Positions 6,532-51,295 of a stretch of DNA of 64,000 nucleotides are shown here, piece after piece. The DNA lies in assembly GCA_964347615.1 (NCBI GenBank), contig CAYFZO010000006.1, positions 4,126 through 68,125 on the forward strand, read 5' to 3'. Both the position numbers and the translations under genes were made by a program. Within the stretch, counting starts at the first letter, position 1. Each line of letters begins with the position of its first letter. The notes beneath the pieces are model-generated. The model had not been told where the DNA came from. It ran no database searches and was given only the letters and a program-made list of their open reading frames with translations. Origin of the DNA: an uncultured Chromatiales bacterium. Its GTDB lineage: Bacteria > Pseudomonadota > Gammaproteobacteria > Poriferisulfidales > Oxydemutatoraceae.

Positions 6532-6558
6532 GCATAAGCTTAGTTGAACGGATTTGTA

Positions 6559-13415: not shown

Positions 13416-13423
13416 AATTACGC

Positions 13424-26441: not shown

Positions 26442-26442
26442 C

Positions 26443-31260: not shown

Positions 31261-31370
31261 CGTGAGCTACTCGGCGTTTTCGCCCGCGCCGGCTGCTGAT
31301 GAGAGACGCCTTTACACTGAGGGCAGGCTTACGGGATAATCGCCGCAATTCAGAAAACACGGAGACAACG

Positions 31371-31928: not shown

Positions 31929-34900
31929 ATGAACAACGACGTCCCTCGCCCCGGAATGATTGCGACAGTTCGCAACCGGCGTGGTGTAATTGCCTCTGTT
32001 GAACCTTTTGACGGCCAAACTGGACGTATTCACCTTGTCGACATAGAGTACAAGGACAACTACGCGCCGGATACGGAACGCATCCTATGGGAACGTGAAC
32101 CTAACCGAGATCTTCTTGAACCGACCGCATTACCCGACCCAACTCAAGACCCCATGCCTCCGAAAGAGTTCGACGCGCTTTTACGCGCCGCTCGATGGAC
32201 GGCTCTTTCCCCATACCTCGACCCTGATGGTGACGGCCCCTTAGATCGAGAACCAATTTCAAGTCCATTCCACGGTGGCGTACGAGTGGAAGACTATCAG
32301 CTCGTCCCATTATTAAAAGCTCTCCGCATGCCTCGCGTGAGCTTGTTGATTGCCGACGACGTCGGGCTTGGCAAAACCGTTGAAGCAGGGCTGATTTTGA
32401 CCGAACTTCTTCTCCGACGTCGTATCCGACGCATTCTAGTCCTCACACCCGCGTCTCTGCGTCAGCAATGGCAGGATGAGCTCTGGGAGAAATTCTCACT
32501 TCGATTCAAAATTATCGATCGCAGCTCAACGGAAAAATTGCGCCGAGACCGAGGAATAGATGCAAATCCATGGCGATCATTCGACCGCATCGTTGCCTCC
32601 TACCATTATTTACGTCAACCCGACGTACGCGAACAATTTTTATCAGCATGTCATACCCCGGAAAATTCACCACACCTACCGTGGGACTTGCTGATAGTGG
32701 ACGAATGTCACAACTTGATGCCGTCATCGTTTGGAGAAGACAGCGAGCTTTGCAAAACGCTCGGTTTGGTCGCACCACGGTTTGAACACCGGCTGTTTCT
32801 TTCGGCGACTCCACACAACGGCCACACGCGTTCGTTCACCGGGCTGCTGGAAATGCTTGACCCGGTGCGCTTCACCCGCACCCACGAAATGAAACCTGCC
32901 ATGCGTGGACGAATCAACGACATAATGATTCGTCGGCTAAAACGCCAGATTAACGCTGGCAGTGCAACACCAAGATTTTGTACCCGGCATCCGCCCAAAT
33001 CTTTGGAACTCAACACAGATCCGCGCGAATCTGCCCTTTCCGAGGCTTTCGATGCCTTTCGCAGCGCTATTCGTAATCTCATCACGGAAGGAACAAAGCA
33101 GCGCCGCCGCGCTGGAATTTTTGCGGTCGAAATTCTCGGCAAACGGCTGCTCTCCTGCCCTACAACGTTTGCTGAATCTTGGAGCCGGACAAGACGGGGG
33201 TTTCGCGAACAGGATGTCTCAGATGAAACGGAATTGGCAGCCGCCGAACGGTCATTGCGTCAGGAAACCGGCGATGACAGAGAAACAGAAAAGCGCGAAG
33301 CCAATGCTGCTGCAACTATAGGTGCATGGCTTAAGAATTTTTCTGACGACGTCAAGGATGAGATCAACCGCATCGAAAAAGCGATTGATGAGCTAGGCTT
33401 TGATCTCAATGCCTCTATTGTTGAACAAACGCCTTGTGTTGACGTGCGCTTCGACACGCTTGTCTCGTTAATCGAAAATCTCCTGCGGAAGAAAAATAAG
33501 TTCCGCGATGACGAACGCTTAATCGTCTTTACAGAATACAAAACCACGCTCGATTACGTCGCTCGACGCCTGCGCGAAAAATACCCTGCCGAACGAATTT
33601 TGACGCTGTTTGGGGCCGGTGGACAGGAGGGTATGGATGAAAGCGAACGTGAAAACGTCAAAGCGGCTTTCAACAATCCGGGTTCACCTGTACGCGTTCT
33701 TATTGCGACCGACGCTGCGTCGGAGGGACTCAACCTGCACCAGACGGCACGATATTTGCTGCATTACGACTGCCCATGGAACCCGTCACGCTTGGAACAA
33801 CGCAACGGCCGCCTTGATCGTTACGGTCAAGCCCGTGACGTGACCGTGCATCACTTTGTCAGCAGTACAGATCCTGATTTGCGCTTTATTGATTGCGTTA
33901 TTCGTAAAGCAGATGAAATTCGAGAAGACCTTGGTTCCGTCAACGAAGTTTTTGACCGTGCAACTTATCGCCGCCTGATTCAAGGGGAAGATGCAGAATC
34001 AGTGAAAACAGATATGTATGCAGGGCTTGACGCCGCCCAAGAAAGCTCGGCTATTGAAGCCGACGAAACGGCCACGATAAAAAACGAAGCAGCGTCTGAT
34101 GATGCGTTGCTTGACGCAATGTCTAAAGAGATCGACTTAGATAGTTATGCACTCGGCGATACGCTTGAAGCGGCAATGATCTCATCGAGTGGTCGAAGGC
34201 CTCAACTCGAAGTCGGTGAGGAGCCGGGATGTTATCGCGTGACAAACCCGGAACTCCCCCACTGGCGTGACATTATTGATGAAACTGTACGCCGTCCATC
34301 ACTTCATGCCGCCCGCGGACCAATGCCGCAACTCGCATTTGACACTAAACAATTCATTAAGCCACTCGGATCTTTGAGTGTTTTTCTACCACGGAAAGAA
34401 GTCTTGCTTATCCACCTTGCACATCCGCTGATGCAACGTGCTCTCAGTCTCCTTACACAATGTCGCTATCCCGGTAACCGCCAAGTTTCACGATGGACGG
34501 TACGCCGAGGTGACGGAGAAATCCCAAAAGATGCTGATGCAGCCATTTTATTTAGTATTGAAGAAATTGCCGTAAATGAATTGCGCGAAACGTTTCATCG
34601 CTGGGTACGCACCGTGGTATTTCCCGTTCAGAATGGAATCCTTGGTGAACCGCTTCCACATATTCCGGCACACAGCTTTCGTGGAGCATCTGTAACGAAA
34701 AATCAAAGCGAACAAAAACAGGCAGGAGAAATCCTTGAGGAGGTTAATGGCTCACTGAGGAAATGGCTGGAACAACACCAGAAAGAACTTACCGACTCTC
34801 TCCAAAATCAACTTGAGAGTGACGGTAAAGCGGCTCGTGGACTTGAAGAGAATCGGTACAAGCAGCGGCAAGGAGAACTATCAAAACTAATCGAAGAAAC

Positions 34901-35186
34901 GACAATAGCAAAACTTACTCGAGAAATTAAGCAACTTCAAGAAAGGCTGCGGCAAAGAAAACTTTTAGATGAAGCCGAGAAAATTATGGAGATTGAACGC
35001 TCTATCAAGAAAAAAGAAGAAGAAATAGAACGTCGCCGTTCTTATTACAAAGAGATCAAAAATCAATTGAAGCGCGAACATGAACGGACTCTTAAACATC
35101 TCCTTCCTAAACGCTTTGCAATGTCAGGCAACGCTCAAGTATTCCCTGTCACAGTTGAAATTCGTTTCCCGGAACAGCAGCCTTGA
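31929..35186 (+). CDS. SNF2-family helicase (DISARM DrmD-like)
   Basis: 'DYQLVPLLKAL...LIADDVGLGKTVEAG' and 'LIVDECHNL' (DExH) are the N-terminal motifs. 'ATDAASEGLNLHQTARYLLHYDCPWNPSRLEQRNGRLDRYGQ' is the SNF2 C-terminal helicase signature. The gene is translationally coupled to the downstream methyltransferase. Confidence 0.85.
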   Translation: MNNDVPRPGMIATVRNRRGVIASVEPFDGQTGRIHLVDIEYKDNYAPDTERILWEREPNRDLLEPTALPDPTQDPMPPKEFDALLRAARWTALSPYLDPDGDGPLDREPISSPFHGGVRVEDYQLVPLLKALRMPRVSLLIADDVGLGKTVEAGLILTELLLRRRIRRILVLTPASLRQQWQDELWEKFSLRFKIIDRSSTEKLRRDRGIDANPWRSFDRIVASYHYLRQPDVREQFLSACHTPENSPHLPWDLLIVDECHNLMPSSFGEDSELCKTLGLVAPRFEHRLFLSATPHNGHTRSFTGLLEMLDPVRFTRTHEMKPAMRGRINDIMIRRLKRQINAGSATPRFCTRHPPKSLELNTDPRESALSEAFDAFRSAIRNLITEGTKQRRRAGIFAVEILGKRLLSCPTTFAESWSRTRRGFREQDVSDETELAAAERSLRQETGDDRETEKREANAAATIGAWLKNFSDDVKDEINRIEKAIDELGFDLNASIVEQTPCVDVRFDTLVSLIENLLRKKNKFRDDERLIVFTEYKTTLDYVARRLREKYPAERILTLFGAGGQEGMDESERENVKAAFNNPGSPVRVLIATDAASEGLNLHQTARYLLHYDCPWNPSRLEQRNGRLDRYGQARDVTVHHFVSSTDPDLRFIDCVIRKADEIREDLGSVNEVFDRATYRRLIQGEDAESVKTDMYAGLDAAQESSAIEADETATIKNEAASDDALLDAMSKEIDLDSYALGDTLEAAMISSSGRRPQLEVGEEPGCYRVTNPELPHWRDIIDETVRRPSLHAARGPMPQLAFDTKQFIKPLGSLSVFLPRKEVLLIHLAHPLMQRALSLLTQCRYPGNRQVSRWTVRRGDGEIPKDADAAILFSIEEIAVNELRETFHRWVRTVVFPVQNGILGEPLPHIPAHSFRGASVTKNQSEQKQAGEILEEVNGSLRKWLEQHQKELTDSLQNQLESDGKAARGLEENRYKQRQGELSKLIEETTIAKLTREIKQLQERLRQRKLLDEAEKIMEIERSIKKKEEEIERRRSYYKEIKNQLKREHERTLKHLLPKRFAMSGNAQVFPVTVEIRFPEQQP

Positions 35187-38100
35187 GTACAGAACAGACC
35201 AATGCCGATCTACCTGGATGGGATTCACTACGCCATGGTGGACTGTTGTTCGATGTTGCTCGGCTTAAAACACTTACCGAATTTATCCCCCCACGATTAA
35301 ACGAATACGTTGAACAGCAGCTACGCCACCAGGGAAGCTCTATATTGAACGAAACCGGCGACACCTCAACTTTCGTTACTTTCGTTTTAGAGCAAGTCTG
35401 CGGACTCGATGGTTCAACCGGCACTTGGTTACGCGGCAACAACGTTCCATCATCTTGGGGACGACGGGCGATTACCGGCGAGACCGTTAAACCTCGTCAT
35501 CTGTGGCAAGGACAACACGACGCGTTGCTACCAATATTCATAGACGACAAAAAACGCATCGGCATCGGCAAAGGACGTCGCACCATTAGCCAAGTGCTTG
35601 GTTGGCTTCGCGCTGGCAACAACCAACTTGCATTAATAACCAACGGTCGCCAATGGCGACTGCTGTTTGCCGGCCTCGACTATGACGCTTGGTGCGAATG
35701 GGATATGGATATGTGGTTTGAGGAGGGTGGGCTCTCGCCGCAAGTAACAGCACTGCGCACCTTGCTCAATTTTGAACTTTGGACTCCGAAATCCGAAGAC
35801 GCTCCACCACTCCTATTACAAGCGATTCGAGATACACGCAAAGGCCAAGCGGAACTCTCAGAGGAACTCGGCGAACAAGTGCGTAAAGCAGTCGAAAAGT
35901 TAATTCAAGGTCACAGCGAAGCACTTCGAGAGTACCACGATTCCGTTGCTCCTGCAGATATTTACCGTGCTGCTTGCCGCGTAGTAATGCGGCTCATAGT
36001 GATCTTGTTCGCCGAATCTCGGGACCTGCTACCTCGAGAAAATGCTCTTTACCACGGTAGCTACGGACTGAATGGACTGTTCGACCAACTCGAACACAGT
36101 GCCCACCATGGCGCGGACCTCGCGAACAGCTGGGCTGCATGGCCCCGCATACTGGCTCTGTTCAACTTAGTGCGGCAAGGATCTCATCACCCCGACTTAC
36201 CAGTAACAGCTTACGGTGGAAAGCTTTTCGCAACTGGGCGCCCAGATCCAGCGGATAGAGCATCCAAAGCAATCGATATCTTTGAACGCGAGAATCAAAG
36301 TGCATTATTTTCCGATCGAGACGTTCACAAGATGCTGAGATTGCTTACCCGCACGACCATCAGCATCCGCCAAGGACGTGGTGTGAGGAGGAGTAAGGCA
36401 CCGGTAGATTTTTCCGATCTCTCGTCTGAATACATCGGCATTCTCTACGAAGGATTATTAGACTATGAGCTTAAGACTGCTCCTGACGACGATTCGGTGG
36501 TCTTTCTGACCGTCGGCAATCGGCCAGCACTTCCACTATCGCGTTTGGAAAAAATGGAAGACGGTGCTATCAGAACCCTTTTTAAGTCTCTCAAGAAAAA
36601 GAAAGCGGTTACAGATGACGATACTTCCGAAGATAGCGAGCAAGAGAGCAAAGACGTCGAGCTGGAAAGTAAGGTTGACGAATTGTCTTTCGATGCCAAT
36701 GATGTAACGCTCTATGATAAAAATGACCAATTAGATATATCTCGGGCAGAAGCATGGGCACGTCGTGCCGTGCAAGTAGCGAAGCTAGTAAAAAAACCAC
36801 TTGTCGCGCGAGTTGTCCTACCAGGCGAATGGTATCTAGTCCGCTGGGGCGGCACTCGAAAAGGCTCTGGAAGCTTCTACACTCGACCGGGACTTGCTGT
36901 GCCAACCGTACAACGCACCCTACGCCCGCTTGCCTATGACCCACCTCCAAAAGCCAATGGAGCGCCAGATACAGCAGCGCGTGCGGAAAGTTGGATTCCG
37001 AAACTGCCGGAACAAATTCTAGACGTTAAAACATGCGACCCCGCCTGTGGATCAGGCACCTTTCCACTGGCAGCGTTACGCTTCCTCACCGATGCTTTAT
37101 ACAAATCTCTTCAACGTCATGAACGCATCAAGCGAGACGGTGAACGTTCGGTGATACGGTTACTACGCCTTCACCATGATAAAAATTCAACAACGGCTGG
37201 TGAATCTCCTTTCCACGAAGAACTTATTCCCTGCCCCCCGGACGACGGCGACTTTGAACCTCGATTAAAGGCGGTATTGCGCCGTCACGTAGTAGAGCGC
37301 TGTATCTACGCTGTAGATCTCGATCCGCTTGCCGTAGAGCTGTGTCAGCTGTCTCTGTGGATTGAAACAATGAACCGTGAACTGCCGTTCGGCTTCCTGG
37401 ATCACAAAATAAAGTGCGGCGACGCGCTACTCGGGGCATGGTTCGACCAGTTTCAACACTATCCTGTTATGGCTTGGAAAAACCGCGAGGGGGGCGATAA
37501 AAATCATTCAGAAGGCGTCCATTTTGAGAAAAACGTTCGTACGAAAAAAATCAAGGATTTTGTCAAAGATAAACTGACACCGGATCTAAAACTCTTTCTG
37601 CGAGGCCGCGATCTATTTCAGGAAGATACACTTGAAATAGCAACAACCGCTCACAAAGAATCACTTTCTGTGTTGGAGAAGATGCACAAAATGTCGGTGC
37701 AGGATACAGAGGAACGAGCGAGAATCTACCACCAGAACTTTTTGGGCAGAAAAGCATGGAGCCAAATCAAAGATGCAATGGATCTTTGGTGCGCTTGCTG
37801 GTTCTGGCCGGTAGACAAGATTGAACAGGCGCCTTTACCAAGTAACTTCGCCAAGCCACCAGGCGAGACGCTCGCTGTCGCTAAACAAACAGCGAATAAA
37901 ATGCGATTCTTCCACTGGGAACTGGAATTTCCAGACGTGTTCCAAGAGCAAGGAGCAGGCTTTAGCGCGATTTTAGGTAACCCCCCGTGGGATGCTCCAA
38001 AGCCTATCTCCAAGGAGTTTTTTTCAGATATTGACCCTCTCTACCGTACCTATGGCAAACAGGAAGCTTTGCAATATCAATCCCGCTGCTTCAAAGACGG

Positions 38101-40558
38101 TGATGCCGTTGAACGTCGCTGGCTCGATGACAATGCCGATTTCCGTGCCCGGGCAAACTTTTTCAGATACGTCCGGGGACCGTTCGGTGATCCAGAAGAA
38201 ACCACCGACGGTAAAAACAGATTTGTGGTTATCCGAGGCAAAACCAATCAGGACCTACATGAAAATTGGCGGCAAGCGCGCAACCACACTGTTAGCTTCA
38301 GCGATCCGAAACATCCATTCCGTCATCAAGGCTCGGCGGATATCAATCTCTATAAACTATTCCTCGAATCTGCCCATGCCTTGTTGGGATTTGGCGGAAG
38401 GTTGGGGTTCATCGTTCCTTCAGGGGTATATTCAGATGACGGAACACAGGCGCTTCGAAAGCTTTTTCTTGACAATTGCCGATGGGAGTGGCTGTTTGGC
38501 ATTGTAAACCGTGAAAACATTTTCCCCATTCATAAAAACTACAAATTCAACCCCGTAATCATTGAAAAAGGCGGAAACACGGAAGCAATCCAAACTGCTT
38601 TCATGCAACGCAATCTCGAAAACTGGGAAAATGCCGAGAGCATCTCTATTTCTTACCCTCAAACGTGGATAAAGCAGTTCAGCCCTAAAAATCGAACTTT
38701 CGTGGAAATTCAATCACAACGTAATTTGGAAATTTTGGAAAAGATATACAACCACAGCATTCTACTAGGTGATAACAGTTCCTCTGGATGGGGCGTTCGT
38801 TACTTTCGTGAATTCGATCAGACAAACGACTCAGAACTCTTCCCACCTCGCCCAGAGTGGGAGAATAAAGGGTATAGACCCGACGAGTACAACCGCTGGT
38901 TGCGAGGCGACTGGCAGCCGATTGAAAACCTCTTGGAGTCTTTAGATATTAATCCAGCCCAGGCCGAACCAGCAGAATTAGAACTTGAAGAGTGGTTGCT
39001 TCACGAGACAAGTTCAGAACGTCAAAAAACCGAAGTCCGACTCGTACGCGGCTATTTGCTCAGACCCGGCGACGTCGCCAGGACCGTTTGGAGTCTACGC
39101 TGCGCGCAGCCACCCTACGACAAACTGCCAATTCCGCGTTCGAAAGTACCTGCTGGAATAATTCTCTCACGAGAGGGTGATACCTATATCCACGTGGATA
39201 AAATCGAAGATATAGCCCTCCCACTTTACGTGGGAAAGATGATTTACGTCGGTGATTGGAACGCATCCACGATTCAGTTAAACGAGTTGAAACAACACAG
39301 CCCCAATCCTGAATACCTTTTAGGTATAAAAGACCTCCGACATAACCGCCAAACAAACAACCGCATCGTTTTCCGTGATGTATCACATGCAACCAATGAA
39401 CGTAGCTTCGTAGCGACTCTCATCCCTGGATTATTTCCCTGCGGGAACAAATTGCCGATACTAAGCTTGCCACCCTACAACCCTGTTCAAAGTCTTGAAT
39501 TAATCAATGCTTTGGTAAGTTTCGGATTCGACTGGGTTGTTCGACAGCGTTTCGCTGGAAATAGCCTCAATTGGCACATTGTCGAACCTTGCCCAGTGCC
39601 GCGCCCGGGTACTAGCACCAACAGAACGATAACGCAGTTGGCAAGGTTATTACTCGGAAACATTCTCTTTTCAAGCGACTGGCTGCAACTTTCGAATCTG
39701 GTTTCGCAGCCTCATTTTTACCCGTGTACTTTCAAAGAAAGGCTTCGTATTACTATTATGCTTGACGCAGTAATGACCGCCACCATGGGGCTTTCGGGGT
39801 CGGATTTTCGACGTATCCTGGCAGGGTGTGATTACCCGGCTGGGAACATCATTGACAAGCAACTAAAAGGTTTCTGGCGCGTGGACAAAGACAAAGCCCC
39901 TGAGCTCCGCCAAACTGTCCTGTCTCTAGTTGCTTTCCAAGACCTCGAAGAGCGAATTAAAGCAGCCAATAACAACGTGGAAAAGGGGATTGATTCTTTT
40001 CTTGCACAAAATCACGGCGAAGGGTGGATGCTGCCGGAAACGTTACGCCTTGCCGACTACGGCCTCGGCCATGACAATCGCGCGAAACAACCACAACCCG
40101 TCGCCAGCCGTCTCCCCGGCCCGCGCTTCTACGATTGGCAACTCGCTCAAAGCCCCAAAGAAGCTTGGCAAGAATGTCATCTCCACGCCCGAAATTTACT
40201 CGGCGCCGATGGTTACGCCCAACACGTTCTGAAACTGATTGAACAACGCGTCTCTAACGATGAAGAGTTTCTTGACCTTCTAACGCTACCGTTTGTGCGT
40301 GATTTCATGAACGAGGATGGTTACACGACGACTATAATCAAACTTCGGGCAAAAAAAATCCTAGACGAGACCGCCTACACCCAACTTCTCGATCATCTTC
40401 GAGCACGTAACCTCTTGGACGAAGTCCGTTATCGTCGCCAACGTGAACGTATTACTTCCACGCCGGAACAGGAGCCTCTGCCGAGAGTAGCCGAGCTCCC
40501 GGCAGACTACGATACCGAAACGCCCTCAAAAGAGAATCAAACAAAGATGTTCGAATAG
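35183..40558 (+). CDS. Giant (1,791-aa) gamma-class N6-adenine DNA methyltransferase (DrmMI/PglX-like) with large N- and C-terminal extensions of unknown function
   Basis: Motif I is 'DPACGSGTFPLAALRFL' at about residue 617. 'IYAVDLDPLAVELCQLSLWIE' follows. Motif IV, 'ILGNPPWD' (NPPW), is at about residue 931. The TTG start overlaps the SNF2 stop. Confidence 0.8.
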   Translation: MSTEQTNADLPGWDSLRHGGLLFDVARLKTLTEFIPPRLNEYVEQQLRHQGSSILNETGDTSTFVTFVLEQVCGLDGSTGTWLRGNNVPSSWGRRAITGETVKPRHLWQGQHDALLPIFIDDKKRIGIGKGRRTISQVLGWLRAGNNQLALITNGRQWRLLFAGLDYDAWCEWDMDMWFEEGGLSPQVTALRTLLNFELWTPKSEDAPPLLLQAIRDTRKGQAELSEELGEQVRKAVEKLIQGHSEALREYHDSVAPADIYRAACRVVMRLIVILFAESRDLLPRENALYHGSYGLNGLFDQLEHSAHHGADLANSWAAWPRILALFNLVRQGSHHPDLPVTAYGGKLFATGRPDPADRASKAIDIFERENQSALFSDRDVHKMLRLLTRTTISIRQGRGVRRSKAPVDFSDLSSEYIGILYEGLLDYELKTAPDDDSVVFLTVGNRPALPLSRLEKMEDGAIRTLFKSLKKKKAVTDDDTSEDSEQESKDVELESKVDELSFDANDVTLYDKNDQLDISRAEAWARRAVQVAKLVKKPLVARVVLPGEWYLVRWGGTRKGSGSFYTRPGLAVPTVQRTLRPLAYDPPPKANGAPDTAARAESWIPKLPEQILDVKTCDPACGSGTFPLAALRFLTDALYKSLQRHERIKRDGERSVIRLLRLHHDKNSTTAGESPFHEELIPCPPDDGDFEPRLKAVLRRHVVERCIYAVDLDPLAVELCQLSLWIETMNRELPFGFLDHKIKCGDALLGAWFDQFQHYPVMAWKNREGGDKNHSEGVHFEKNVRTKKIKDFVKDKLTPDLKLFLRGRDLFQEDTLEIATTAHKESLSVLEKMHKMSVQDTEERARIYHQNFLGRKAWSQIKDAMDLWCACWFWPVDKIEQAPLPSNFAKPPGETLAVAKQTANKMRFFHWELEFPDVFQEQGAGFSAILGNPPWDAPKPISKEFFSDIDPLYRTYGKQEALQYQSRCFKDGDAVERRWLDDNADFRARANFFRYVRGPFGDPEETTDGKNRFVVIRGKTNQDLHENWRQARNHTVSFSDPKHPFRHQGSADINLYKLFLESAHALLGFGGRLGFIVPSGVYSDDGTQALRKLFLDNCRWEWLFGIVNRENIFPIHKNYKFNPVIIEKGGNTEAIQTAFMQRNLENWENAESISISYPQTWIKQFSPKNRTFVEIQSQRNLEILEKIYNHSILLGDNSSSGWGVRYFREFDQTNDSELFPPRPEWENKGYRPDEYNRWLRGDWQPIENLLESLDINPAQAEPAELELEEWLLHETSSERQKTEVRLVRGYLLRPGDVARTVWSLRCAQPPYDKLPIPRSKVPAGIILSREGDTYIHVDKIEDIALPLYVGKMIYVGDWNASTIQLNELKQHSPNPEYLLGIKDLRHNRQTNNRIVFRDVSHATNERSFVATLIPGLFPCGNKLPILSLPPYNPVQSLELINALVSFGFDWVVRQRFAGNSLNWHIVEPCPVPRPGTSTNRTITQLARLLLGNILFSSDWLQLSNLVSQPHFYPCTFKERLRITIMLDAVMTATMGLSGSDFRRILAGCDYPAGNIIDKQLKGFWRVDKDKAPELRQTVLSLVAFQDLEERIKAANNNVEKGIDSFLAQNHGEGWMLPETLRLADYGLGHDNRAKQPQPVASRLPGPRFYDWQLAQSPKEAWQECHLHARNLLGADGYAQHVLKLIEQRVSNDEEFLDLLTLPFVRDFMNEDGYTTTIIKLRAKKILDETAYTQLLDHLRARNLLDEVRYRRQRERITSTPEQEPLPRVAELPADYDTETPSKENQTKMFE

Positions 40559-40596
40559 ATAGAAAGCCAAGAGATCAGATGAAGCTGTTTCGGAAC

Positions 40597-41112
40597 CTAA
40601 CCACCAATCTCTCTGGTGAATCGATTAATTATATCTTCGTTGATGTGCGTAGGGCTAGATTCATGCATTTGGTTAGCAACCGCCAAAGCAGTATGCTGCG
40701 TAAGAACACCAGCAGTAACCAAATCCACCATTAGGGTAAGCCCGAAACGAGTTTTGACGCGATGTTTTTCGCAAAGTCGCTGAAGTGCTCTATCGTTTGT
40801 GACGCACGTCCATCCTCTTTCTTTACAGGTAACGAGGCAAAGGCGGTCATTAAATGAAACGTTTGACTCGACTTCTCCAGCTGCAAGCATTTGTTCTGTC
40901 TCAACTTCGACGACCTCGATACCATAACGACGACACTGAGACACTGATACTCCTCGGACCTCGTCGAGCACGTGCGTCAAAACGGCTATTTGCCCTACGG
41001 ACTGAGTTACGAGTTTTAGAACCTCTAGCTTGGAATCACGGTAGTCTATAAGAACGTCCGCATCCGCAAGAAGCCCAGTTTGTAAGGCCCCGCGTTCAAT
41101 TTGTCCACTCAC
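40597..41112 (-). CDS. PIN-like nuclease-fold protein (DUF4411-like), partner of the HTH-ImmA regulator
   Basis: The N-terminus 'LLADADVLIDY' is a PIN-like first-Asp strand. Further acidic residues follow ('THVLDEVRG', 'VTNDRAL'). Its start overlaps the upstream HTH-ImmA stop. The ImmA-plus-DUF4411 pairing is a recurring defence-island dyad (from memory). Confidence 0.45.
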   Translation of the reverse strand: MSGQIERGALQTGLLADADVLIDYRDSKLEVLKLVTQSVGQIAVLTHVLDEVRGVSVSQCRRYGIEVVEVETEQMLAAGEVESNVSFNDRLCLVTCKERGWTCVTNDRALQRLCEKHRVKTRFGLTLMVDLVTAGVLTQHTALAVANQMHESSPTHINEDIINRFTREIGG

Positions 41113-42229: not shown

Positions 42230-42252
42230 CTTCGAACTTCGAAAAGCGCCCC

Positions 42253-42281
42253 TTGACAGGCGTTCACCAGTAAGGTATCAT
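42253..42281 (+). promoter_or_regulatory. Candidate sigma-70 promoter for the Ubl/E2/JAB/E1/helicase operon, with TTCGAA repeats immediately upstream
   Basis: The sequence is TTGACA, 17 nt, TATCAT (42,253-42,258 and 42,276-42,281). It lies in the divergent intergenic region between the HTH-ImmA gene and the Ubl gene. 'CTTCGAACTTCGAA' at 42,229-42,246 is a possible operator. Confidence 0.4.
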
Positions 42282-42406
42282 ATCTCCCGAAGTTGTCAAT
42301 ATGAATACTTTCAGATTGGCAGCTATAGGGCCGAACGCTTGGCTGATTGCCGTTTTGCTGTCAGCAGGCTTCGGGATTATACAACAAGCACGGGAGGGAC
42401 CAGATA

Positions 42407-42658
42407 ATGGTTGATCCAGACAAAGTAATCCTCGAAATTGCGGCACCGAAAGGGCTGTTCAAAGGGGAGTTCGAAAAAACTGTTACCGTTCAACAGGTAA
42501 TCGACGCAGTTATAGAAAAACAACAATTGCAGCGCGGCGATGTTTTTGAGCTGTTTTATAAAGGTAAGCAGCTTGAACCAGTAAAACAAACGCTGGCTGA
42601 GTTTAATCTTGCAGGAGTAGTTCAGCTCGAGCTCGTTGCTACCGGTCAAGGAGTATAG
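42407..42658 (+). CDS. Small ubiquitin-like (beta-grasp) protein
   Basis: 83 aa with a GGGAGGGA ribosome-binding site. It is the first gene of an operon that also encodes E2-like, JAB/MPN and E1-like proteins. The C-terminus reads '...LELVATGQGV'. Confidence 0.5.
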   Translation: MVDPDKVILEIAAPKGLFKGEFEKTVTVQQVIDAVIEKQQLQRGDVFELFYKGKQLEPVKQTLAEFNLAGVVQLELVATGQGV

Positions 42659-42664
42659 CGATCC

Positions 42665-43123
42665 ATGGCAACGGTATCTGAGTTGATTCTCGGTGAAGAG
42701 TTCGGTCATTTGCGCGAGATAGCCGAAGCTCGTAACTGGCCTCTCAGTCAAGTCAACAAGCGTACATTTAAGCTCACGCTTACAGCACGTGATGATGCCC
42801 GCTTCAGCTTATTGGTTAGCTGCAGCGATTACCCGCAAAAACCACCGGCTTGGCACTGGTGTAATCCTGAAACGGATGCTCTGGACCAAAAAAGCGATAC
42901 GCCGAAAGGGACTGGAGGATATTTTGACCAGTCGGGTTGCATTTGTGCGCCTTGGAACAGGCTCGCCTATCAGCAAGAGAACCCTGAAGGCCCTCACCCA
43001 GATTGGAATCTTGTGAACTGGAGGACAAATGATTGGACAAAAGGATGCACCACGCTGTCCGCAATGGCGTCACGTATCGCGGTCGAACTCATGAGCGATC
43101 GTTACCGAGGCCGGGAAATCTGA
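42665..43123 (+). CDS. E2-like (UBC-fold) candidate conjugating protein
   Basis: 152-aa protein lying between the Ubl and JAB genes. 'QSGCICAPWN' is a candidate catalytic Cys loop. The assignment is mainly by operon context. Confidence 0.35.
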   Translation: MATVSELILGEEFGHLREIAEARNWPLSQVNKRTFKLTLTARDDARFSLLVSCSDYPQKPPAWHWCNPETDALDQKSDTPKGTGGYFDQSGCICAPWNRLAYQQENPEGPHPDWNLVNWRTNDWTKGCTTLSAMASRIAVELMSDRYRGREI

Positions 43124-43128
43124 GATAA

Positions 43129-43650
43129 ATGCTTGAACGAATAAAAAAGTTGTTTTTTCGTAAACGAGTTTTCAAACCTGGTCCGCCAGAACCACCTAGA
43201 TTGATTTTAGCTCAATCCAGTGTGACTGCTCTACGGTCTTGCATGAAACCGGAAATTCGAAAAAAACACGAAAGTATCGCTTACCTTCTGGGTCAGACTA
43301 ACTCTACGACAACTTTGGTTGTGAGTGTAATCCGACCTCAGGCCCAAACCACACCGGGGAGCTTCAAGGTCGAGTCCGTAGCAATGATACGAATTATGCG
43401 TGCAGCTGTCCGTCTTGGACTTCAGGTAGTTGGACAAATACATACCCATCCTAGGAAAGCATTTCACAGCGAAGGAGACGAGGAAGGAGCACGTATTGCC
43501 TATAGCGGCTACGCTTCGATCGTGTTGCCTGATTATGGGCGACGCCTCCCCTCGTTCAAAGGAGCAGTTGCCTACATGTTCCAGACTAACAGCGGCTTTA
43601 TACCAATCGCTCCAGATTGCTTCGTGATCGTGCCGGGAAAAACATCGTGA
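43129..43650 (+). CDS. JAB/MPN+ (JAMM) metalloprotease / deubiquitinase-like
   Basis: The JAMM motif is 'GQIHTHPRKAFHSEGDEEG' (H-x-H-x7-S-x2-D). An upstream Glu lies in 'FKVESVAMIR'. Confidence 0.7.
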   Translation: MLERIKKLFFRKRVFKPGPPEPPRLILAQSSVTALRSCMKPEIRKKHESIAYLLGQTNSTTTLVVSVIRPQAQTTPGSFKVESVAMIRIMRAAVRLGLQVVGQIHTHPRKAFHSEGDEEGARIAYSGYASIVLPDYGRRLPSFKGAVAYMFQTNSGFIPIAPDCFVIVPGKTS

Positions 43651-44996
43651 ACGGGGAAGACTGGAGAAGGGAACGTGACAGTCGTTCCTTGCTCTATGCG
43701 GGGCGAGTACTCGACCGTAATCGGTGGGTGTCGCTGTGTCCTGATCCACGTTACGTGTCGCGTTACGATGGGCAAGTGGCGCTTCTGACCGCGGCGAATC
43801 TCCTTGGTCGAATGACCCCCAGTATTGCGTTGGATATTCCTGATTCAATCCCCATCGTTGATTCTCTACCTAATGCCGGGAAGAACTTGCGTGACGTGTT
43901 GCTTGACCAGCTTCATGAAGCAGATCCTTCTGGGAGTTTCTGTCGCCGCTCATATAAACCGGATGACTACATCATCAGATTCGGTAAGACCGGCGGCGTC
44001 AATACAGTGCACGGGTCGGGCTGGAAAATGTACTGCGGCCCAAGCCCATCACCTTTGGCAGAAACCGAAACGGTAAATCCAATTGGCCCAGCAATGGCTT
44101 CTATTCTTGCTGTAAGTGAAGCTTTCCGAACAAATCTTACTTCACCTCCCGGACAATACACTTTCGATGCTCTAACTTGGACTTCTGACGTAAAAGATGA
44201 AAGTGATGCTCCACTTCCTACTCAGTCGAAGCTCGGAGAAGTTTGGGTTGTTGGTACTGGCTCAGTTGGAACAGCGGTACTCTATTTTTTGAGCCTTGCT
44301 ACACGGAATTTTTCCGCGGTTCTTTTCGACATGGATATAGTCGAAATTCACAATCTGGATCGATCTCCTATATTCACGAGTAACGATGCGGATAATAAAA
44401 CAAACAAAGCAATAGCGACAAAAAGATATCTAAACCAAGTAGGAGTTTCTAACGTCAAAGCCGAACCACACGCCCTTGATGAATCCGATATCTGGAAAAA
44501 CCGTCAGCCAGGTACCCCCGACGTTTTAGTCCCGACCGCAAACGAGCGTAATGTGCGTTCCCTTATCGAAAGTTACTTTCCGCCAATCCAAGTTTACGGA
44601 ACCACGGGGCAGAACGGACAAGCCACAATGATTCGTCATATTCCCCCGCATGATCCATGTTCGCTTTGCCTATTTCCTGACACTGACCACGCACCAACGA
44701 GTTGCGCGATCGGTAAAGTTGAGAATGAAAGTAATGAAAAGAAAATTGATGCGGCGCTCCCTTTTCTATCCTTTGCTGCAGGAGCAATGGCCGTCGCCGA
44801 AATTCTAAAACTCAGCCTGCCTGATTATCCAGCCAATAGAAGTAACCGAACAATCTTGTACACAGGCTGTCCACCCCGTTTCACATCTGGACAATTATCT
44901 TTCAGAGATGGTTGCCCATGCCGGCAACGTAACTACGACCTTTATCGAAAAATAACCGAGAACACCTGCTTTTCCCACTTGATGCGTTTCTCATGA
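43617..44996 (+). CDS. E1-like ThiF/MoeB-family activating enzyme
   Basis: The Rossmann nucleotide-binding motif is 'VWVVGTGSVGTAVLYFL', with 'FDMDIVEIHNLDRS' after it. A C-terminal Cys pair lies in 'PHDPCSLCLFPDTDH...SCAIG'. Its start overlaps the JAB gene. Confidence 0.7.
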   Translation: MLRDRAGKNIVNGEDWRRERDSRSLLYAGRVLDRNRWVSLCPDPRYVSRYDGQVALLTAANLLGRMTPSIALDIPDSIPIVDSLPNAGKNLRDVLLDQLHEADPSGSFCRRSYKPDDYIIRFGKTGGVNTVHGSGWKMYCGPSPSPLAETETVNPIGPAMASILAVSEAFRTNLTSPPGQYTFDALTWTSDVKDESDAPLPTQSKLGEVWVVGTGSVGTAVLYFLSLATRNFSAVLFDMDIVEIHNLDRSPIFTSNDADNKTNKAIATKRYLNQVGVSNVKAEPHALDESDIWKNRQPGTPDVLVPTANERNVRSLIESYFPPIQVYGTTGQNGQATMIRHIPPHDPCSLCLFPDTDHAPTSCAIGKVENESNEKKIDAALPFLSFAAGAMAVAEILKLSLPDYPANRSNRTILYTGCPPRFTSGQLSFRDGCPCRQRNYDLYRKITENTCFSHLMRFS

Positions 44997-45027
44997 TTTC
45001 GTAGTTTAGGCACTCAATCGGCCAACA

Positions 45028-48000
45028 ATGTATTATCGGCTGGTTTGGAACTTTCAAAGTGCTGTATTTCCAATGGCTTTAAACCCCATCGCTTACACGG
45101 AAAGCGTCGTCCGTAGTTTTCTGCGTTACCAACTTACGGCGTACCCTTTCGCTGACCAAAGATTGCACGAACAGATGTGCAAATTGCTGTCTCTTAACGA
45201 AACTCGTCAGTCTCCCCTCCTCAAAGGCCCCTACGTCAGCTTATCGCGCTCATTCCGGCAAGGCGCTTCAGTCGCGTCTTTAGTGAAAGAAAGGCTGCTA
45301 CACCCTCACTTACAACAACGTATTCGCAACGAAGTTACACATCTCTATAGTCATCAAGAAAAAGCGATCCGTGCTATTGCGAAGAAGCAGACAACCCTCG
45401 TATCCACCGGAACCGGTTCAGGCAAAACCGAATGCTTCCTCTATCCCATCATTAGCCAATGCCTGAAACTCAGGGATGAAAAAGCATCCCCCGGTATTAG
45501 CGCGGTCATTGTCTATCCGATGAACGCATTGGCGGAAGATCAGCTCATGCGATTACGCGGCCTGTTGGCAGGCACTGGAATTCCATTTGGGATTTATGTA
45601 GGCAAGACACCTGAGAATGAAGCCGATGTGACTGGCGTTAAATTGCATGATGGGGCGTCACGGGATGATTACGAAACCCGGCTGAAACGAGCACAACAAG
45701 AAAGCAGCGGCGAGACGGTTTATCCAGCAGAAGAGGTTTGTTCACGGGAGGTTATGCGCACAGAAGGCAAACAGCCACGAATTCTCTTAACCAACGTGAA
45801 GCAGCTTGAGCTGCTGCTGACGCGGCAGATAGATATTCAACTGTTCGCTAATGCTCGACTGGATTTTCTGGTATTCGATGAGGCTCATACGTTCACTGGG
45901 GCGCTAGGAGCGGAAACAGCCTGCCTAATCCGGCGCCTGCGTGCATTCTGTGACATCAATATAAACCACACTACATGCGTCGCTACCTCAGCAACGATCG
46001 TTGATAAGGAAGAGCCTGACGCCGCCCGAAAATTCGCCGCACGATTTTTCGGCGTTCCACGCGAAGCAGTAACTACAGTTAATGAAGACTACGAAAAAGA
46101 CGTTTGGGAAGAGCCACGGTTTGTTCCCACTGCTCCCCCTGAAAAAGCTGCCGATATTCTCAGCAACTGTATTGAGGCAGTTGAAGACGAAGACAATTCA
46201 AACGCTGAAAAAATAGAGGCAATCTATCGTGCGTTAACCGGCGAGGGCCTGCCCGAAAGAAACTGGCCGGAAGCCCTGCACAATGCTATGTCTCGCAATG
46301 ATCTGGTTTTTCGCTTGAACGAGGAGCTCCATACCCCGAGGGAGCTGGCGGAATTACCAGCAGCACTTGAACGGCATATCGACCGCCCTGTAGCTGAGGA
46401 AGAAATTCTTGCTTGGCTGACGTTAGGGGCGGCAGCACGCAAGCAAGGTCGACCTTTATTACGCCCCATCGTACATAACTTCGTACGCGGCATCAGCGGC
46501 GCCGTGGTGACATTTCCTAAAGATATGAATAGCCCGAAGCTATGGCTCGCTGCAAAAGACGAGGGTGAGATTGAACCTGACACGTCTGAAGATAAACATG
46601 CGCATTTTCCTGTAACGACCTGTACTACTTGTGGACAGCACTACTTCATTGCGTTCCTAAAAGACTTCTCTTTCACCGGAAACGTGCCTGAGGGCGGTGA
46701 AACCAGCTCCACCGGCCCTTGGTGGTCTTCGAAAGAAGAAACTTTGGGTGGTAAACGCGTTGTTCTAGTAGACAAATTGATTGGAGAAAGTGACGAAGAC
46801 GAGGACACGTCTCCTCATGCGAAGATGGCACCACTCTATTTCTGTCGCCGATGCGGAACAGCACACCTTGAAACACAGTCACGATGCCTTTGCTGTGGAT
46901 ATGAAAATGGTACGGTTCAGCTGCACGCAGTCCGCCAGAAGGAAAAAAATCCTGGCAAACTGGCCAGCTGCCTTTCTTGTGGTTCTACCAGTCGTCGACT
47001 CGGCGGGGATTACCGCGAACCAGCCCGGCCCGTGCGTGCAGTTAACGTGGCGGACGTGCACGTTCTCACCCAAGACATGGTGCACCACGCAGAACGACGT
47101 CGTCTGCTCGTATTCTGCGATAACCGGCAGGACGCGGCATTTCAAGCTGGCTGGATGAAAGACCGCGCCCGACGTTTCAGGTTACGAGCGTTAATGATGG
47201 AAAACATCAAAAAAAGCGCGTGCTCCGTAGGCGATTTGGCCGGGCATCTCGATAAGTTAATGGAAAAAGATGAAACCCTTTCACGAGCGTTGCTTCCTGA
47301 GGTATGGCGCGTTGCACGTCGAGAAGACAGCGGTACCCGCCACCAACAGGAACGCTACAAGTTTCTTCGCTTCCAAGTATTGCGCGAAGTTACACTGCCG
47401 TCACGACAAGCGGTTGGTCTCGAGCCATGGGGCCGCATGAAAATCGAATACACGGGGCTCGACGCGGTGCTACCATGGATTCAGAAGCATGCTCATTCCC
47501 TAAGCCTCCCCCCAGATGGCTTGCGGGAAGGCGTCGCAAGCGTACTCGACTACTTGAGACGAAGAGGGGTGCTGTATGACCCTGAGAATGAGATATTTAC
47601 GAAATACTGGGGAAAAGGAGACCTTGAGATCCAGCGTGGGTACTTACCCGACTCTATTCGACCCAACTCCACCAAGCTACAGCGCCAAGCAGATGAAAAA
47701 CGGGAAGTAATTATTCAATGGATAAGCGACAGGGGCAGCCCAACGGTACCCCAAATCGTCAAGAAATGGGGGGCAGAGAAAAACGCAATCAAACCACTTT
47801 TGGAAAGCTTGTTTCAATTCTTAAAGGAAAACAAACTACTAGTGCCTGTACGACTTAAAGGTTACAAAGGCCGCGCGCTCCCAAAGGTACACGGCGTCTA
47901 CCAAGTAAATAGCGACAAATTACTGTTGACTCCGAACAAAGGCATGAGACGTTGTCGTAGCTGTCGCCGCACTACCACTCGGAACTTACCTTACGACCAC

Positions 48001-51000
48001 TGCCCTGCCCGGAATTGCAACGGAACTTTGGAATGGGTGCCGGAAGATCCAGACAACTATGATTTGCATCTGCTCGATAGCGCATACGAAATGCTGCGTC
48101 CGGAAGAACACACTGCTATGGTCCCATCTGAGGACCGCGAACGTTTTGAGAACTTGTTTAAGGGTGAATCAGAGGCAGTAAATTGTCTGGTGTGTACCCC
48201 AACGTTGGAACTAGGAATTGATATCGGGCGACTCGACTCAGTCCTGATGCGCAACGTACCCCCGTTGCCGGCAAATTATTGGCAGCGCGCCGGACGCGCC
48301 GGACGGCGACATCGCATGGCGGTGAATGTCACCTATTGCCGACCAGTCTCACACGACCGTGCCTACTTCTCAGAGCCGCCTAAATTGCTGGCAGGCAGGA
48401 TTGACCCTCCGGCATTTAATCTAAGAAACGAAGTGATGGTCGAAAAACACGTTCACGCAATAATCATCGCCTCTTTGTATCGCTATTGTCATGATAACGC
48501 TAGACCAGAAGCGGAACGTAACACGATACAGGAAACTTTGCTCAATTGTTTTCCCTCGTTTATCTCGCCTTATCTATTCGATGACAATGAAGAAGTACGG
48601 ACAACGCTGTTCGGCTTCACTTCCTTACGCGATTTAGTTCAGGAAAACTATCAAGCATTGGTCACCGACGTGCAACGTGTGTTTGAGCAAGGATGGCCAG
48701 AGACGGATGCCGACGTTGTAACCCAAGAAGCTCTTTCTGCCTACGTCGCCAAATTCGCCGATAACTTGGAAAACGTCGTCAAACGTTTGCAGCGCCGTCT
48801 GCGTTGGGCTATGAACCAGATTCAGCGCCTCAATAATCACCGTCAGAGCCAGGGAACGCTTTCCCGTGAGGATGAAACGCTATTCCGCCGTTGCGACAAT
48901 CTGGTAAAACGACTAAAAGGCACGAGCTGGAGACGACGAAGCCGAGCGGAAGGGCACTACGACTCGAACACGTTCAGCGTGCTCTCAGCGGAGGGATTCC
49001 TGCCGGGTTACGGCCTGGAAGTCGGCTCGATAAGAGGTGAAGCGGAAATTCCACCCTGGCTCCCCGGAGCTAAGAGTTTTTCTTTACCTCGACCGCCTGC
49101 AATCGCTCTACGTGAATACGTTCCTGGCAATCTCATCTATGCCAACGGACAACGTTTTGTCGCGCGTCACTTTCGCCGCGAGGCAGGCGAGGAATATTCA
49201 GAGATGCCGTGCTACGAAGTATCAATTGACCACCAAGCCGTTAAGCCCGTTAGTTTAAATGCACCCTCGTCATTAGGCGGATACGTCCTCCAAACAATAT
49301 CCGTCTGTGATACGGACTTAATTCATACTTCACACATATCCGACGAAGAAGAATTTCGGTTTCAATTAGGCTTAGCTATTTACGGATTGGAAATCAAGCA
49401 GCACAACGGCGGAATCTCATATCGTTGGGGAGAAAAAACCATGCAACATCGCCGTGGAGTACATATACAACTTGTCAACGTAGGGGCTTTGCTCGCCATC
49501 CGCAAAGGAGAAATTGGTTATCCTGTCTGCACGGTATGCGGCCAAAGTATCTCCCCTATTTCCTCTGACAGACAGCACCAAGAGTTTGTTAAAGATCACA
49601 AGGAACGTTGTGGACGTGAGCCAAAATCTATCGGTTTCTATACCAACGTAGTTGCCGACGCGCTTTCGCTGCCTGAGTGTGACAACTTGGAAATCGCGTA
49701 CAGCGTCTTAGAGTCTTTGCGCTTCGCCGCTACTAGAGTACTTGACATGCATACGGAAGACTTGCAGGTGCTTGTTATAGGACACGTTGAACGAGACGGC
49801 GTAGATGCTTTGTTATGGGATCCAATGCCTGGTGGATCCGGGCTGCTTGACCGCGTGTGTGAACGCTTTGATGAAATCGTGCAAGCAGCTAAAGAAATCG
49901 TTAGTGATTGTCCCGCAGTATGTGACTCATCCTGCATAGATTGCCTTCAGACGTTCCGCAACGCTTATTACCATGAGCACCTCAATCGCCATACAGCCCA
50001 AACACGATTGGAAGAATGGGGAGAACAGCTGGTACGCCGTCACGATATTCCACCGTTGCAACAAAACATTGCCTCCAGCAAAAATGCAATGCCGGTTAAC
50101 GAGGCAGAAACCAAGCTGCGGCACCTGCTACTCGCCGCTGGATTTGACGAAGGCATCCGAGACGAACAGATTCAGTTAGATCGAGCAATAGGAACTACAA
50201 CACCTGACGTAATCTACCGAACGGAAACCGATGGAACAGACGAAGGTGTATGTATTTATTTGGACGGATTGAGTGCACATATCCATGGCAACCCAAAAAC
50301 CGCTGAGAAAGACAGGGAAATCCGGGATTGGTTACGCAATAGAGGATATGAGGTCATTGAAATCACCGCTAACCAGTTAGACGATGAAGATGCAATGACA
50401 CGTCACTTTCGCCGCCTCGCAAGATATTTGCAGATGCCAGATACATTAAGCCGGCTGCGTGATGATCACTCGTGGTTTCGCCAATCTAAAAAGGCATCAG
50501 TTTCTCCTTTGCGATTGGTTACACCGACACCTGAAACGCGTTATGTCACCTGCGTGCCTCTAGTCCCCTTGCAGATTGCCGCAGGGACGTTTGGCGATCC
50601 CAATGCCGCTCCCGACGAATCCGAATGGCAGTGGGTAAAACTTAACTCAGTACGCACGCTGCGCCCTGGAATGTTTGTTGCTGCCGTAACTGGAAAATCT
50701 ATGGAGCCAAAAATACCCGATGGCTCATACTGCCTTTTTTCCGGCCCTGTCACTGGGACGCGGCAAGAAAAAATCGTGCTTGCTCAAATGCACGACACGA
50801 TTGACCCTGAAACCGGGGCCAGGTTTACTGTAAAACGCTATCGGAGCACGAAAGGGGAAAACGACGATGGCTGGCGACACATCAAAATCACCCTTGAACC
50901 TATTAACCCTGACTATCAACCGATTGAGTTAGCGACGGATAACGAGAACTCCGTCACAGTAGCCGCGGAACTGGTTAGCGTTCTTGGCCAAGACGCTCCT

Positions 51001-51195: not shown

Positions 51196-51295
51196 CCCCG
51201 GTCTATCCTTAATCGCGCAACGTTGGCGGCAATCGGTGTTTTGCTTGTCATCTGGCGCAACAATTATCCGCTGATTTCAGTTCACTTTTCGCGCG

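Follow-up and report, generated by a model that had tools for sequence, protein, structure and literature searches.

Closest described systems

ARMADA is a class of anti-phage systems, named in 2025, in which a BrxHII/RapA-like SNF2 helicase (ArmA) and a PglX-like methyltransferase (ArmB) are combined with a fused YprA-like helicase (ArmC) (Bell et al. 2025, bioRxiv 10.1101/2025.09.15.676423). Druantia DruE is the nearest relative of ArmC, which has a Vsr-type nuclease at its C-terminal end. A BrxA-like domain, a zinc-binding beta-barrel and MarR-like insertions around RecA2 further characterise the ARMADA helicase. ARMADA type II adds a further protein, ArmD, a GajB/UvrD helicase with a RelE-like N-terminus. 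In type I, armC is usually the first gene, and the order armA-armB-armC is found in some lineages (archaea and cyanobacteria). ARMADA is by definition related to DISARM, with which it has two genes in common, and DISARM is the branch in which helicase and DUF1998 are consistently split into DrmA and DrmB (Bell et al., 10.1101/2025.09.15.676423). Here we describe a locus from an uncultured Chromatiales bacterium (GenBank assembly GCA_964347615.1, contig CAYFZO010000006.1, positions 4,126 to 68,125), which is very probably an ARMADA type I anti-phage system with the order armA-armB-armC. The whole stretch of 64,000 nucleotides (nt) that was analysed is called the window. A slot for defence cargo between armB and armC and a LexA-like tail on ArmC are apparently unreported features of such loci.

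General features of the locus

The locus lies inside a low-GC (~0.49) defence island at ~28.9-52.5 kb of the window, with flanks of 0.60-0.68 GC. Its gene order is armA, armB, cargo (a PIN/RmrA pair and a Bil-like operon) and armC. Profile scans covered 14 open reading frames (ORFs) of the island and 10 other ORFs of the window. No tRNA was found in the window; no integrase was recognised in the search for island boundaries, and no direct repeat of at least 14 nt is common to both island borders as an attachment site. For comparison, 80 related loci (L002-L081) were taken from reference genomes and probed with the window proteins. They cover Acidobacteriota, Gemmatimonadota, Gammaproteobacteria, Binatia, Spirochaetia, Planctomycetota, Actinomycetota, Chlorobiota and a Synechococcus metagenome-assembled genome. 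The three core genes and their motifs are as follows (aa, amino acids).

31929..35186, plus strand: armA, BrxHII/RapA/DrmD-like SNF2 helicase, 1085 aa (Pfam, PADLOC, NCBIfam, homology to E. coli ArmA)
32364-32378, plus strand: armA Walker A motif GLGKT, residue 146
32700-32711, plus strand: armA motif DECH, residue 258
35183..40558, plus strand: armB, PglX/DrmMI-like N6-adenine DNA methyltransferase, 1791 aa, TTG start (Pfam, PADLOC, relatives)
37037-37057, plus strand: armB motif I DPACGSG, residue 619
37979-37990, plus strand: armB motif IV NPPW, residue 933
45028..51024, plus strand: armC, YprA/DruE-like DExH helicase-nuclease, 1998 aa (ATG 45028) or 1983 aa (ATG 45073) (Pfam, PADLOC)
45415-45429, plus strand: armC motif GSGKT
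45877-45888, plus strand: armC motif DEAH
49717-49947, plus strand: armC MZB/DUF1998 (Pfam)
50125..50397, plus strand: predicted Vsr-like PD-(D/E)xK nuclease domain of ArmC, residues ~1700-1790 (conserved block, Foldseek)

The coupled armA and armB genes

The armA product contains the Pfam domains SNF2-rel_dom and Helicase_C and covers the DrmD profile end to end (PADLOC PDLC02621, 8e-202). It also matches the BrxHII (2e-70) and RapA (1.7e-45) profiles, and scores 672.8 bits against the NCBIfam DISARM_DrmD equivalog, above the curated cutoff of 610. The armB product has a Pfam Eco57I match (1e-20) and matches the DrmMI profile of PADLOC (2e-126) over residues 135-948; its top PADLOC profile is REase_MTase_IIG, at 1230 bits. 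The catalytic core is flanked by ~618 aa on the N-terminal side and ~855 aa on the C-terminal side, in agreement with a preliminary description of this DNA, which had put about 600 aa before and about 850 aa after DPACGSG...NPPW. The same description had called the enzyme unusually large, which it is not. A search at E<=1e-10 finds 2,188 relatives of ArmB. The top 120 of them are 53-68% identical to the window protein and span 1,722-2,348 aa, so 1,791 aa is a normal size in this family. The validated E. coli ArmB has 1,644 aa, with GxG and NPPW at positions similar to those in the window protein.

The N-terminal part of ArmB might hold a degenerate nuclease fold. The homologue alignment contains no conserved (D/E)xK motif after the conserved D121. 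An AlphaFold2 model of the N-terminal 600 aa has a moderate predicted local distance difference test score (pLDDT) of 62.5, and its best match in the PDB is the type IIG enzyme BpuSI, which is non-significant (E=0.21). A search of PDB sequences with the ArmB family profile gave nothing at E<=0.001; the only match was a 32-residue TaqI motif (E=0.025).

The SNF2 gene and the methyltransferase gene overlap as the preliminary description had reported. Their junction reads CCTTGAGT, in which the TTG start of armB (35183-35185) overlaps the TGA stop of armA (35184-35186) within a shared TTGA of 4 nt. The TTG start is credible because there is no in-frame ATG close downstream and because conservation among ArmB homologues begins at about residue 11 (PGW...). 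A 4-nt in-frame overlap of the ATGA, GTGA or TTGA kind recurs at the armA-armB junction of 48/72 related loci, so it is not a product of chance. On the evidence of this recurrence armA and armB are translationally coupled, with a TTGA-type overlap that is conserved across phyla. In some loci small inserts between armA and armB break the usual overlap (L035:9232-9968, L037:8220-9989, L041:9088-9998 and L076:3909-5354). Read from translations without profile matches, these inserts are of SpoVT/AbrB-like plus PIN pair, Phd/YefM-like antitoxin and Schlafen/AlbA types.

The BrxHII match of ArmA, together with the published description of the pair as BrxHII-like and PglX-like (Bell et al.), might suggest a BREX-family system. 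However, no PglZ, BrxC/PglY, BrxA, BrxB or BrxL is present among the island ORFs, and the NCBIfam BREX PglX models give ArmB 19.7 against 900 bits, far below cutoff. We regard a BREX assignment as extremely unlikely.

The ArmC helicase-nuclease

The ENA gene call has 1983 aa, and alignments of homologues set in at residue 16, which makes the later ATG, at 45073, the more likely start of armC. Pfam recognises DEAD, Helicase_C, MZB/DUF1998 and Peptidase_S24 in this single ORF, and its translation holds four CxxC motifs at residues ~532-650 that are compatible with a zinc module. The closest PADLOC profiles are those of DruE, at 394 bits (DruE1, 3e-118; DruE3, 9e-108). The DrmA profile matches at 1.5e-14 (~51 bits) in the generic Helicase_C region only. 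ArmC scores 187 bits to the E. coli type II ArmC versus 161 bits to the DruE of Druantia type III.

Behind the helicase, the conserved block TTTPD...YLDG...HG...D...EVIEI (TTTPD at 1723-1727, YLDG at 1744-1747) has the invariant residues D1727, D1746, H1753, D1762 and E1778. A profile of the ArmC tail gave a marginal match among PDB sequences to the Vsr-like I-Bth0305I (3r3p, E=0.06), and Foldseek aligned this part with 3r3p_B at a probability of 0.90 and a template modelling (TM) score of 0.68. A Vsr nuclease is predicted at this position of ArmC by Bell et al. as well. Both the conserved residues and the modelled fold indicate that the C-terminal region of ArmC carries a predicted Vsr-type nuclease.

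The preliminary description had read the SNF2 gene (31929-35186), the methyltransferase gene (35183-40558) and a DUF1998-type helicase downstream as a set like that of DISARM class 1. Much of this stands: both genes are there, their products are homologous to DrmD and DrmMI, and a helicase with MZB/DUF1998 does follow at 45028-51024. The helicase, however, is not drmA/B. DISARM class 1 (DrmD, DrmMI, DrmA, DrmB, DrmC) has separate DrmA and DrmB (OB-CON-DUF1998) proteins and an optional, separate phospholipase D (PLD) nuclease, DrmC, while here a helicase of the same YprA superfamily is fused with DUF1998, Vsr and S24 modules in one DruE-like protein. A DISARM class 1 variant, in which DrmD and DrmMI go with a fused DrmA/B-type helicase and DrmC has been lost, would account for the DrmD score above the NCBIfam cutoff and for the DrmMI match, and those are the two genes that ARMADA by definition has in common with DISARM. 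Such a variant is nevertheless improbable. The helicase scores 394 bits with DruE against ~51 bits with DrmA, the latter over Helicase_C alone; its nuclease is of a fused Vsr type and not a separate PLD; and homologous contigs have been classed as ARMADA Type I by the authors who define both clades, which for these homologues already implies a place outside the DISARM/Dpd clade. The DISARM reading fails because the defining split of DrmA and DrmB is absent. The missing PLD gene, noted before as a departure from DISARM, is real, since none of the 24 window ORFs scanned, 14 of them in the island, matches the PLD domain of DrmC. It is not a deviation, and is in fact expected, because ArmC has its own Vsr-type nuclease. 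Current models (NCBIfam DISARM_DrmD, PADLOC DrmD/DrmMI/DruE) would call the locus an incomplete DISARM and a stray DruE.

Druantia DruE (types I-III) is, in turn, alike in being a large fused helicase with DUF1998 and, as the CxxC motifs suggest for ArmC, zinc modules, and it differs in its company and in its nuclease. No island ORF matches the profiles of DruA-D, DruM/F/G or DruH, and tblastn of E. coli DruH against the window was negative. The partners here are an SNF2 helicase and a methyltransferase, and the nuclease is of Vsr type versus PLD.

Conservation of the triad

An SNF2 gene lies upstream of the methyltransferase gene in 75/80 related loci. Downstream of it, within 10 kb, 50/80 loci encode a helicase that is 52-70% identical to the window ArmC. 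Other genes of the island do not share this distribution. The Bil-like operon has no homologue in any of the 80 loci, and neither have three ORFs of the island margins (31299-31883, 51005-51274 and 51296-52492). The HEC-01 pair upstream of armA has no counterpart by armA in these loci, save two weak AAA_21 matches to its ATPase. As the other island genes are not conserved, apart from RmrA-like and PIN matches in a few loci, SNF2 helicase, methyltransferase and fused helicase are the unit under selection. Judged from these homologues, conservation of the triad extends to many bacterial phyla.

Probable assignment to ARMADA type I

Three observations place the triad in ARMADA. Its proteins are homologous to those of the validated comparison set, the ARMADA II operon of E. 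coli O157 Sakai:

ArmA against E. coli ArmA: 28% identity, 6e-61
ArmB against E. coli ArmB: 20% identity, 1e-24
ArmC against E. coli ArmC: 22% identity, 8e-33

Next, Table S1 of Bell et al. (10.1101/2025.09.15.676423) lists an "ARMADA Type I helicase" on four contigs that are among our related loci, CP175563.1 (L012), DASYEH010000008.1 (L038), JBBAAN010000016.1 (L051) and MEKT01000042.1 (L056), and these contigs carry helicases with 59-65% identity to the window ArmC. Finally, E. coli ArmD had no match in a tblastn search of the whole window, and nothing in Pfam, PADLOC, NCBIfam or PHROG convincingly matches the ORFs that lie behind armC. With no ArmD, the locus is therefore not ARMADA type II.

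Like ARMADA type I, the locus has the three proteins, NPPW in ArmB, and a fused helicase with putative zinc modules, DUF1998 and a predicted Vsr-type nuclease, and no ArmD. It differs from the published type I in the S24 tail on ArmC and in the cargo slot between armB and armC, and the order armA-armB-armC is found here in Acidobacteriota, Gemmatimonadota, Gammaproteobacteria, Binatia, Spirochaetia, Planctomycetota and Actinomycetota. The type II loci of E. coli (O157, NCTC 12900, ATCC 8739) are alike in gene order, in their homologous proteins and in the GxG and NPPW positions of ArmB. They differ in having ArmD (the RelE-GajB/UvrD helicase), contiguous genes and an ArmC without the G-x-S-M-x-P motif of an S24 active site.

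Several points tell against this assignment. The three proteins share little sequence with their validated E. coli counterparts (28%, 20% and 22% identity). Placement in type I is a contig-level cross-reference to Table S1 combined with 59-65% helicase identity. Experimental tests of ARMADA cover type II alone, type I function being deduced. In the window, 4.5 kb with two opposite-strand genes lie between armAB and armC, so that joint regulation of armA, armB and armC is at most possible. In 29/80 related loci, no helicase lies within 10 kb downstream of the methyltransferase gene, in several because the contig ends; where it does not end, the slot may be larger or armC may be absent.

Two other candidates were rejected. 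For Hma there is a partial HmaA match only (4e-69), with no HmaB or HmaC among the matches listed. For MADS, mad3 is matched only by the neighbouring AAA_21 ATPase, and NCBIfam MAD2 gives 22.9 against 720 bits.

A defence-cargo slot between armB and armC

The junction between armB and armC (window 40559-45027) is occupied by two groups of genes:

40597-41112, minus strand: cargo 1, PIN-domain toxin (Pfam PIN)
41096-42229, minus strand: cargo 1, helix-turn-helix (HTH) plus M78/ImmA-IrrE peptidase (Pfam HTH_3, Peptidase_M78; PADLOC RmrA 3e-38)
42347 or 42407-42658, plus strand: cargo 2, ubiquitin-like protein (Ubl; weak Pfam ubiquitin/Rad60-SLD match, 4e-4, below cutoff)
42665-43123, plus strand: cargo 2, E2-like (PADLOC BilB 1e-6)
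43129-43650, plus strand: cargo 2, JAB deubiquitinase (Pfam Prok-JAB; PADLOC BilC 1e-14)
43617-44996, plus strand: cargo 2, E1 (Pfam ThiF; PADLOC BilD 3e-17; precomputed BilD_N match)

Both groups had been recognised in the preliminary description as a PIN/HTH-ImmA pair and a Ubl operon lying between the methyltransferase and the helicase, and both hold up, at 40597-42229 (minus strand) and 42347-44996. By its profile matches the first is a Rosmer-like RmrT/RmrA pair. The second (42347..44996, plus strand) brings Ubl, E2, JAB and E1 genes together in one operon with weak to moderate Bil profile matches. The C-terminus of the Ubl reads ...ATGQGV. At 42347-42751 the ENA gene caller gives an overlapping minus-strand ORF and neither the Ubl nor the full E2-like ORF.

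The distance from armB to armC in related loci ranges from -36 bp to >10.8 kb (>10,823 bp), with a median of 4.2 kb. The two genes abut directly in L026, L043, L071 and L074 and lie ~120-270 bp apart in L052 and L076. In 44 related loci, the slot holds 217 ORFs that fall into 166 sequence clusters, 136 of them singletons. Bulk annotation of 128 cargo representatives returned mostly defence families, including AbiL/AAA_21 with RloB, AriA-like and PtuA-like ATPases, RmrA, SoFic, Schlafen/AlbA, AbiEi/AbiEii, DarT, S_4TM, nSTAND3, ThiF-type E1s and HNH. Strong RmrA-like matches (54-72% identity) occur near armB in 10 loci and PIN in 8, mostly, though not always, in the slot. Judging by these contents, armB and armC are separated by a hypervariable slot that takes unrelated defence modules. 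As occupants of this slot, the PIN/RmrA pair and the Bil-like operon are therefore not ARMADA components.

The neighbourhood of armC also bears on a reading in which the region is two unrelated neighbours: a stand-alone restriction-modification enzyme of the type IIG/ISP kind, assisted by an SNF2 protein, and a separate Druantia-like helicase that goes with the Ubl operon. The armC start lies 31-76 nt after the E1 gene, and the promoter-like site TTGACA-17-TATCAT (42253-42281), the strongest of the region, precedes the Ubl gene. The helicase matches DruE profiles, REase_MTase_IIG is the top PADLOC profile of the methyltransferase, and BpuSI is the best, though non-significant, match of the N-terminal model. 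Against this, the helicase follows the methyltransferase in 50/80 loci from different phyla, whether cargo is present or absent, and in several cases abuts it, while the Bil-like operon is found in 0/80. Moreover, the methyltransferase N-terminus lacks a conserved (D/E)xK nuclease motif, and there is no DruH or other Druantia partner. We consider it very unlikely that the two halves are unrelated, and return to ARMADA type I as the preferred identity. The scan for promoters and terminators gave counts at or below chance, and since site counts do not exceed chance, co-transcription of the Bil-like operon and armC is only a possibility.

Interruption of armB-armC by cargo goes unmentioned in the main text of Bell et al. 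(10.1101/2025.09.15.676423) and in the supplements consulted, and literature searches did not find the slot feature. Hma with its "Hma-embedded candidates" in PADLOC offers a parallel, being a conserved multi-gene system whose internal junction gathers unrelated defence modules. Type I restriction-modification and BREX loci likewise hold embedded defence genes. The present case differs from such systems in its host, ARMADA, and in the location of the slot between armB and armC, with smaller armA-armB inserts in some loci. Uncharacterised occupants of the slot are a possible hunting ground for new defence genes, an approach already taken with the Hma-embedded candidates.

A LexA-like S24 module at the end of ArmC

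After the Vsr-like block, ArmC continues into a module of the LexA/UmuD type:

50560..50982, plus strand: predicted C-terminal LexA/UmuD-type S24 peptidase module of ArmC, residues ~1845-1985 (Pfam, alignment, AlphaFold2/Foldseek)
50581-50586, plus strand: putative cleavage site A1852-G1853 (motif)
50698-50700, plus strand: predicted catalytic Ser1891 (motif)
50833-50835, plus strand: predicted catalytic Lys1936 (motif)

The tail contains PL-x-PL-x-AAAG with a LexA-type Ala-Gly site, G-K-S-M-E-P with Ser1891, and T-V-K-R-Y with Lys1936. Pfam Peptidase_S24 matches the window ArmC at 8.5e-9, above cutoff, and is found in 19/19 homologous ArmC tails. In an alignment of 49 sequences, the Ala-Ala of the site and the serine never vary, and conservation of Gly1853 and Lys1936 reaches at least 90%. 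The 360-aa ArmC tail is matched by 995 database proteins at E<=1e-5, many of which are fragments auto-annotated "LexA" by their sources. An AlphaFold2 model of the tail (pLDDT 82) has as its top Foldseek matches in the PDB the lambda cI cleavage fragment 2ho0, LexA 7b5g, LexA-RecA 8s7g and UmuD-RecA 8gmt, with TM scores of 0.60-0.71 on target to the LexA, UmuD and lambda cI folds. The profile of the ArmC tail found no LexA match among PDB sequences, so the S24 assignment rests on Pfam and the fold search.

The module is thus similar to LexA, UmuD and lambda cI (MEROPS S24) in its Ala-Gly site, G-x-S-M-x-P serine, T-V-K-R lysine and predicted fold. It differs in being fused C-terminally to a helicase-nuclease of ~1,850 aa, whereas theirs is fused to an HTH DNA-binding domain. 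A literature search turned up nothing that connects S24 or LexA with ARMADA or ArmC, and the tail is not mentioned in the main text of Bell et al. (10.1101/2025.09.15.676423) or in the supplements consulted. In L016 (1-5291), an armC with the S24 tail overlaps armA by 4 nt, and armB lies 4.7 kb further on. Since L016 has the canonical type I order armC-armA, both gene orders occur in this clade.

The intact motifs and the modelled fold suggest autoproteolytic control of ArmC, possibly stimulated by RecA. As a concrete hypothesis for the regulation of a YprA-type defence helicase-nuclease, we put forward, tentatively, that the putative S24 tail cleaves itself, possibly on filaments of RecA and single-stranded DNA (ssDNA), and thereby switches ArmC activity. 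The tail is present in 18 of 23 aligned helicase homologues from related loci, and the other 5/23 end after the Vsr block, so it is not essential to the core mechanism.

Proposed mechanism

The mechanism outlined here draws on experiments with E. coli ARMADA type II, DISARM and Druantia III. In ARMADA II, all genes are essential, NPPW is required, and protection is direct and non-abortive (Bell et al., 10.1101/2025.09.15.676423). Recent biochemistry on DruE describes a 3'-to-5' helicase that loads on ssDNA. By analogy, ArmB would mark host DNA with N6-methyladenine or otherwise provide sequence discrimination. ArmA would translocate on DNA. On unmodified invader DNA, ArmC would load at ssDNA or forked intermediates, unwind these and cut with its Vsr-like nuclease, and defence would be direct and non-abortive, as in type II.

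The S24 tail may add a layer of control. If the tail cleaves itself at A1852-G1853, possibly under the stimulus of RecA-ssDNA filaments that form on damaged DNA or on intermediates of phage replication, the last ~146 residues would be freed, and the activity, oligomeric state or stability of ArmC could change. A speculative extension, which we hold to be possible but rather doubtful, joins the two unreported features. An S24 switch stimulated by RecA-ssDNA, formed on intermediates of phage replication or recombination, would detach the tail and license or time-limit ArmC, and the slot would be a shared expression platform that co-deploys cargo with armC. On such a platform, transcription of the Bil-like operon would start from the promoter-like site at 42253 and continue into armC. 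If this is true, a methylation-based ARMADA would be wired directly to the ssDNA/SOS sensor of the cell, the S24 tail being a possible link between RecA filaments and the activation of defence.

Other features of the window

Further genes of the island lie around the ARMADA locus:

29141-30430, plus strand: HEC-01 pair, AAA_21 ATPase (PADLOC HEC-01A 1e-191; Pfam AAA_21)
30420-31097, plus strand: HEC-01 pair, DUF4276 protein (PADLOC HEC-01B 4e-86; Pfam DUF4276)
31299-31883: unassigned island ORF, 194 aa (sub-threshold SLATT_5, 0.002)
51005-51274: unassigned island ORF, 89 aa (no convincing match)
51296-52492: unassigned island ORF, 398 aa (no convincing match)

The HEC-01 pair, which stands just upstream of armA and carries the PADLOC label "Hma-embedded candidate", is a neighbouring system outside ARMADA. 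The three unassigned ORFs have nothing convincing in Pfam, PADLOC, NCBIfam or PHROGs and are not counted as ARMADA parts.

Other defence-type genes are found to the left of the island. At 455-6222 there are an AAA_15/AAA_21 ATPase (455-2107), a 1,038-aa ResIII-type protein (2107-5223) and an AbiJ_NTD4 plus DUF7014 protein (5284-6222). They are followed by a region of clustered regularly interspaced short palindromic repeats (CRISPR) and cas genes at 6544-8880 and 9381-18136 (minus strand). Its array has at least 31 repeats (~36 nt, core CTTCAATGAAGCCGGCGCAACGTTGCGCCGGATTT, period of ~73 nt) and adjoins a Cas4-Cas1 fusion, Cas_GSU0054, Cas_GSU0053 and Cas3; the locus looks like type I-U/I-G. 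A second M78/ImmA-IrrE peptidase protein (385 aa, 19770-20927, minus strand), outside the ARMADA island, may be another RmrA-like regulator. The high-GC left flank contains, at 25345-28799 (minus strand), a bufferin-type operon for a ribosomally synthesised and post-translationally modified peptide (BufA1, MbnB/TglH/ChrH, HvfC_N) with a sigma-70 family gene, a call based on precomputed Pfam matches on the ENA contig.

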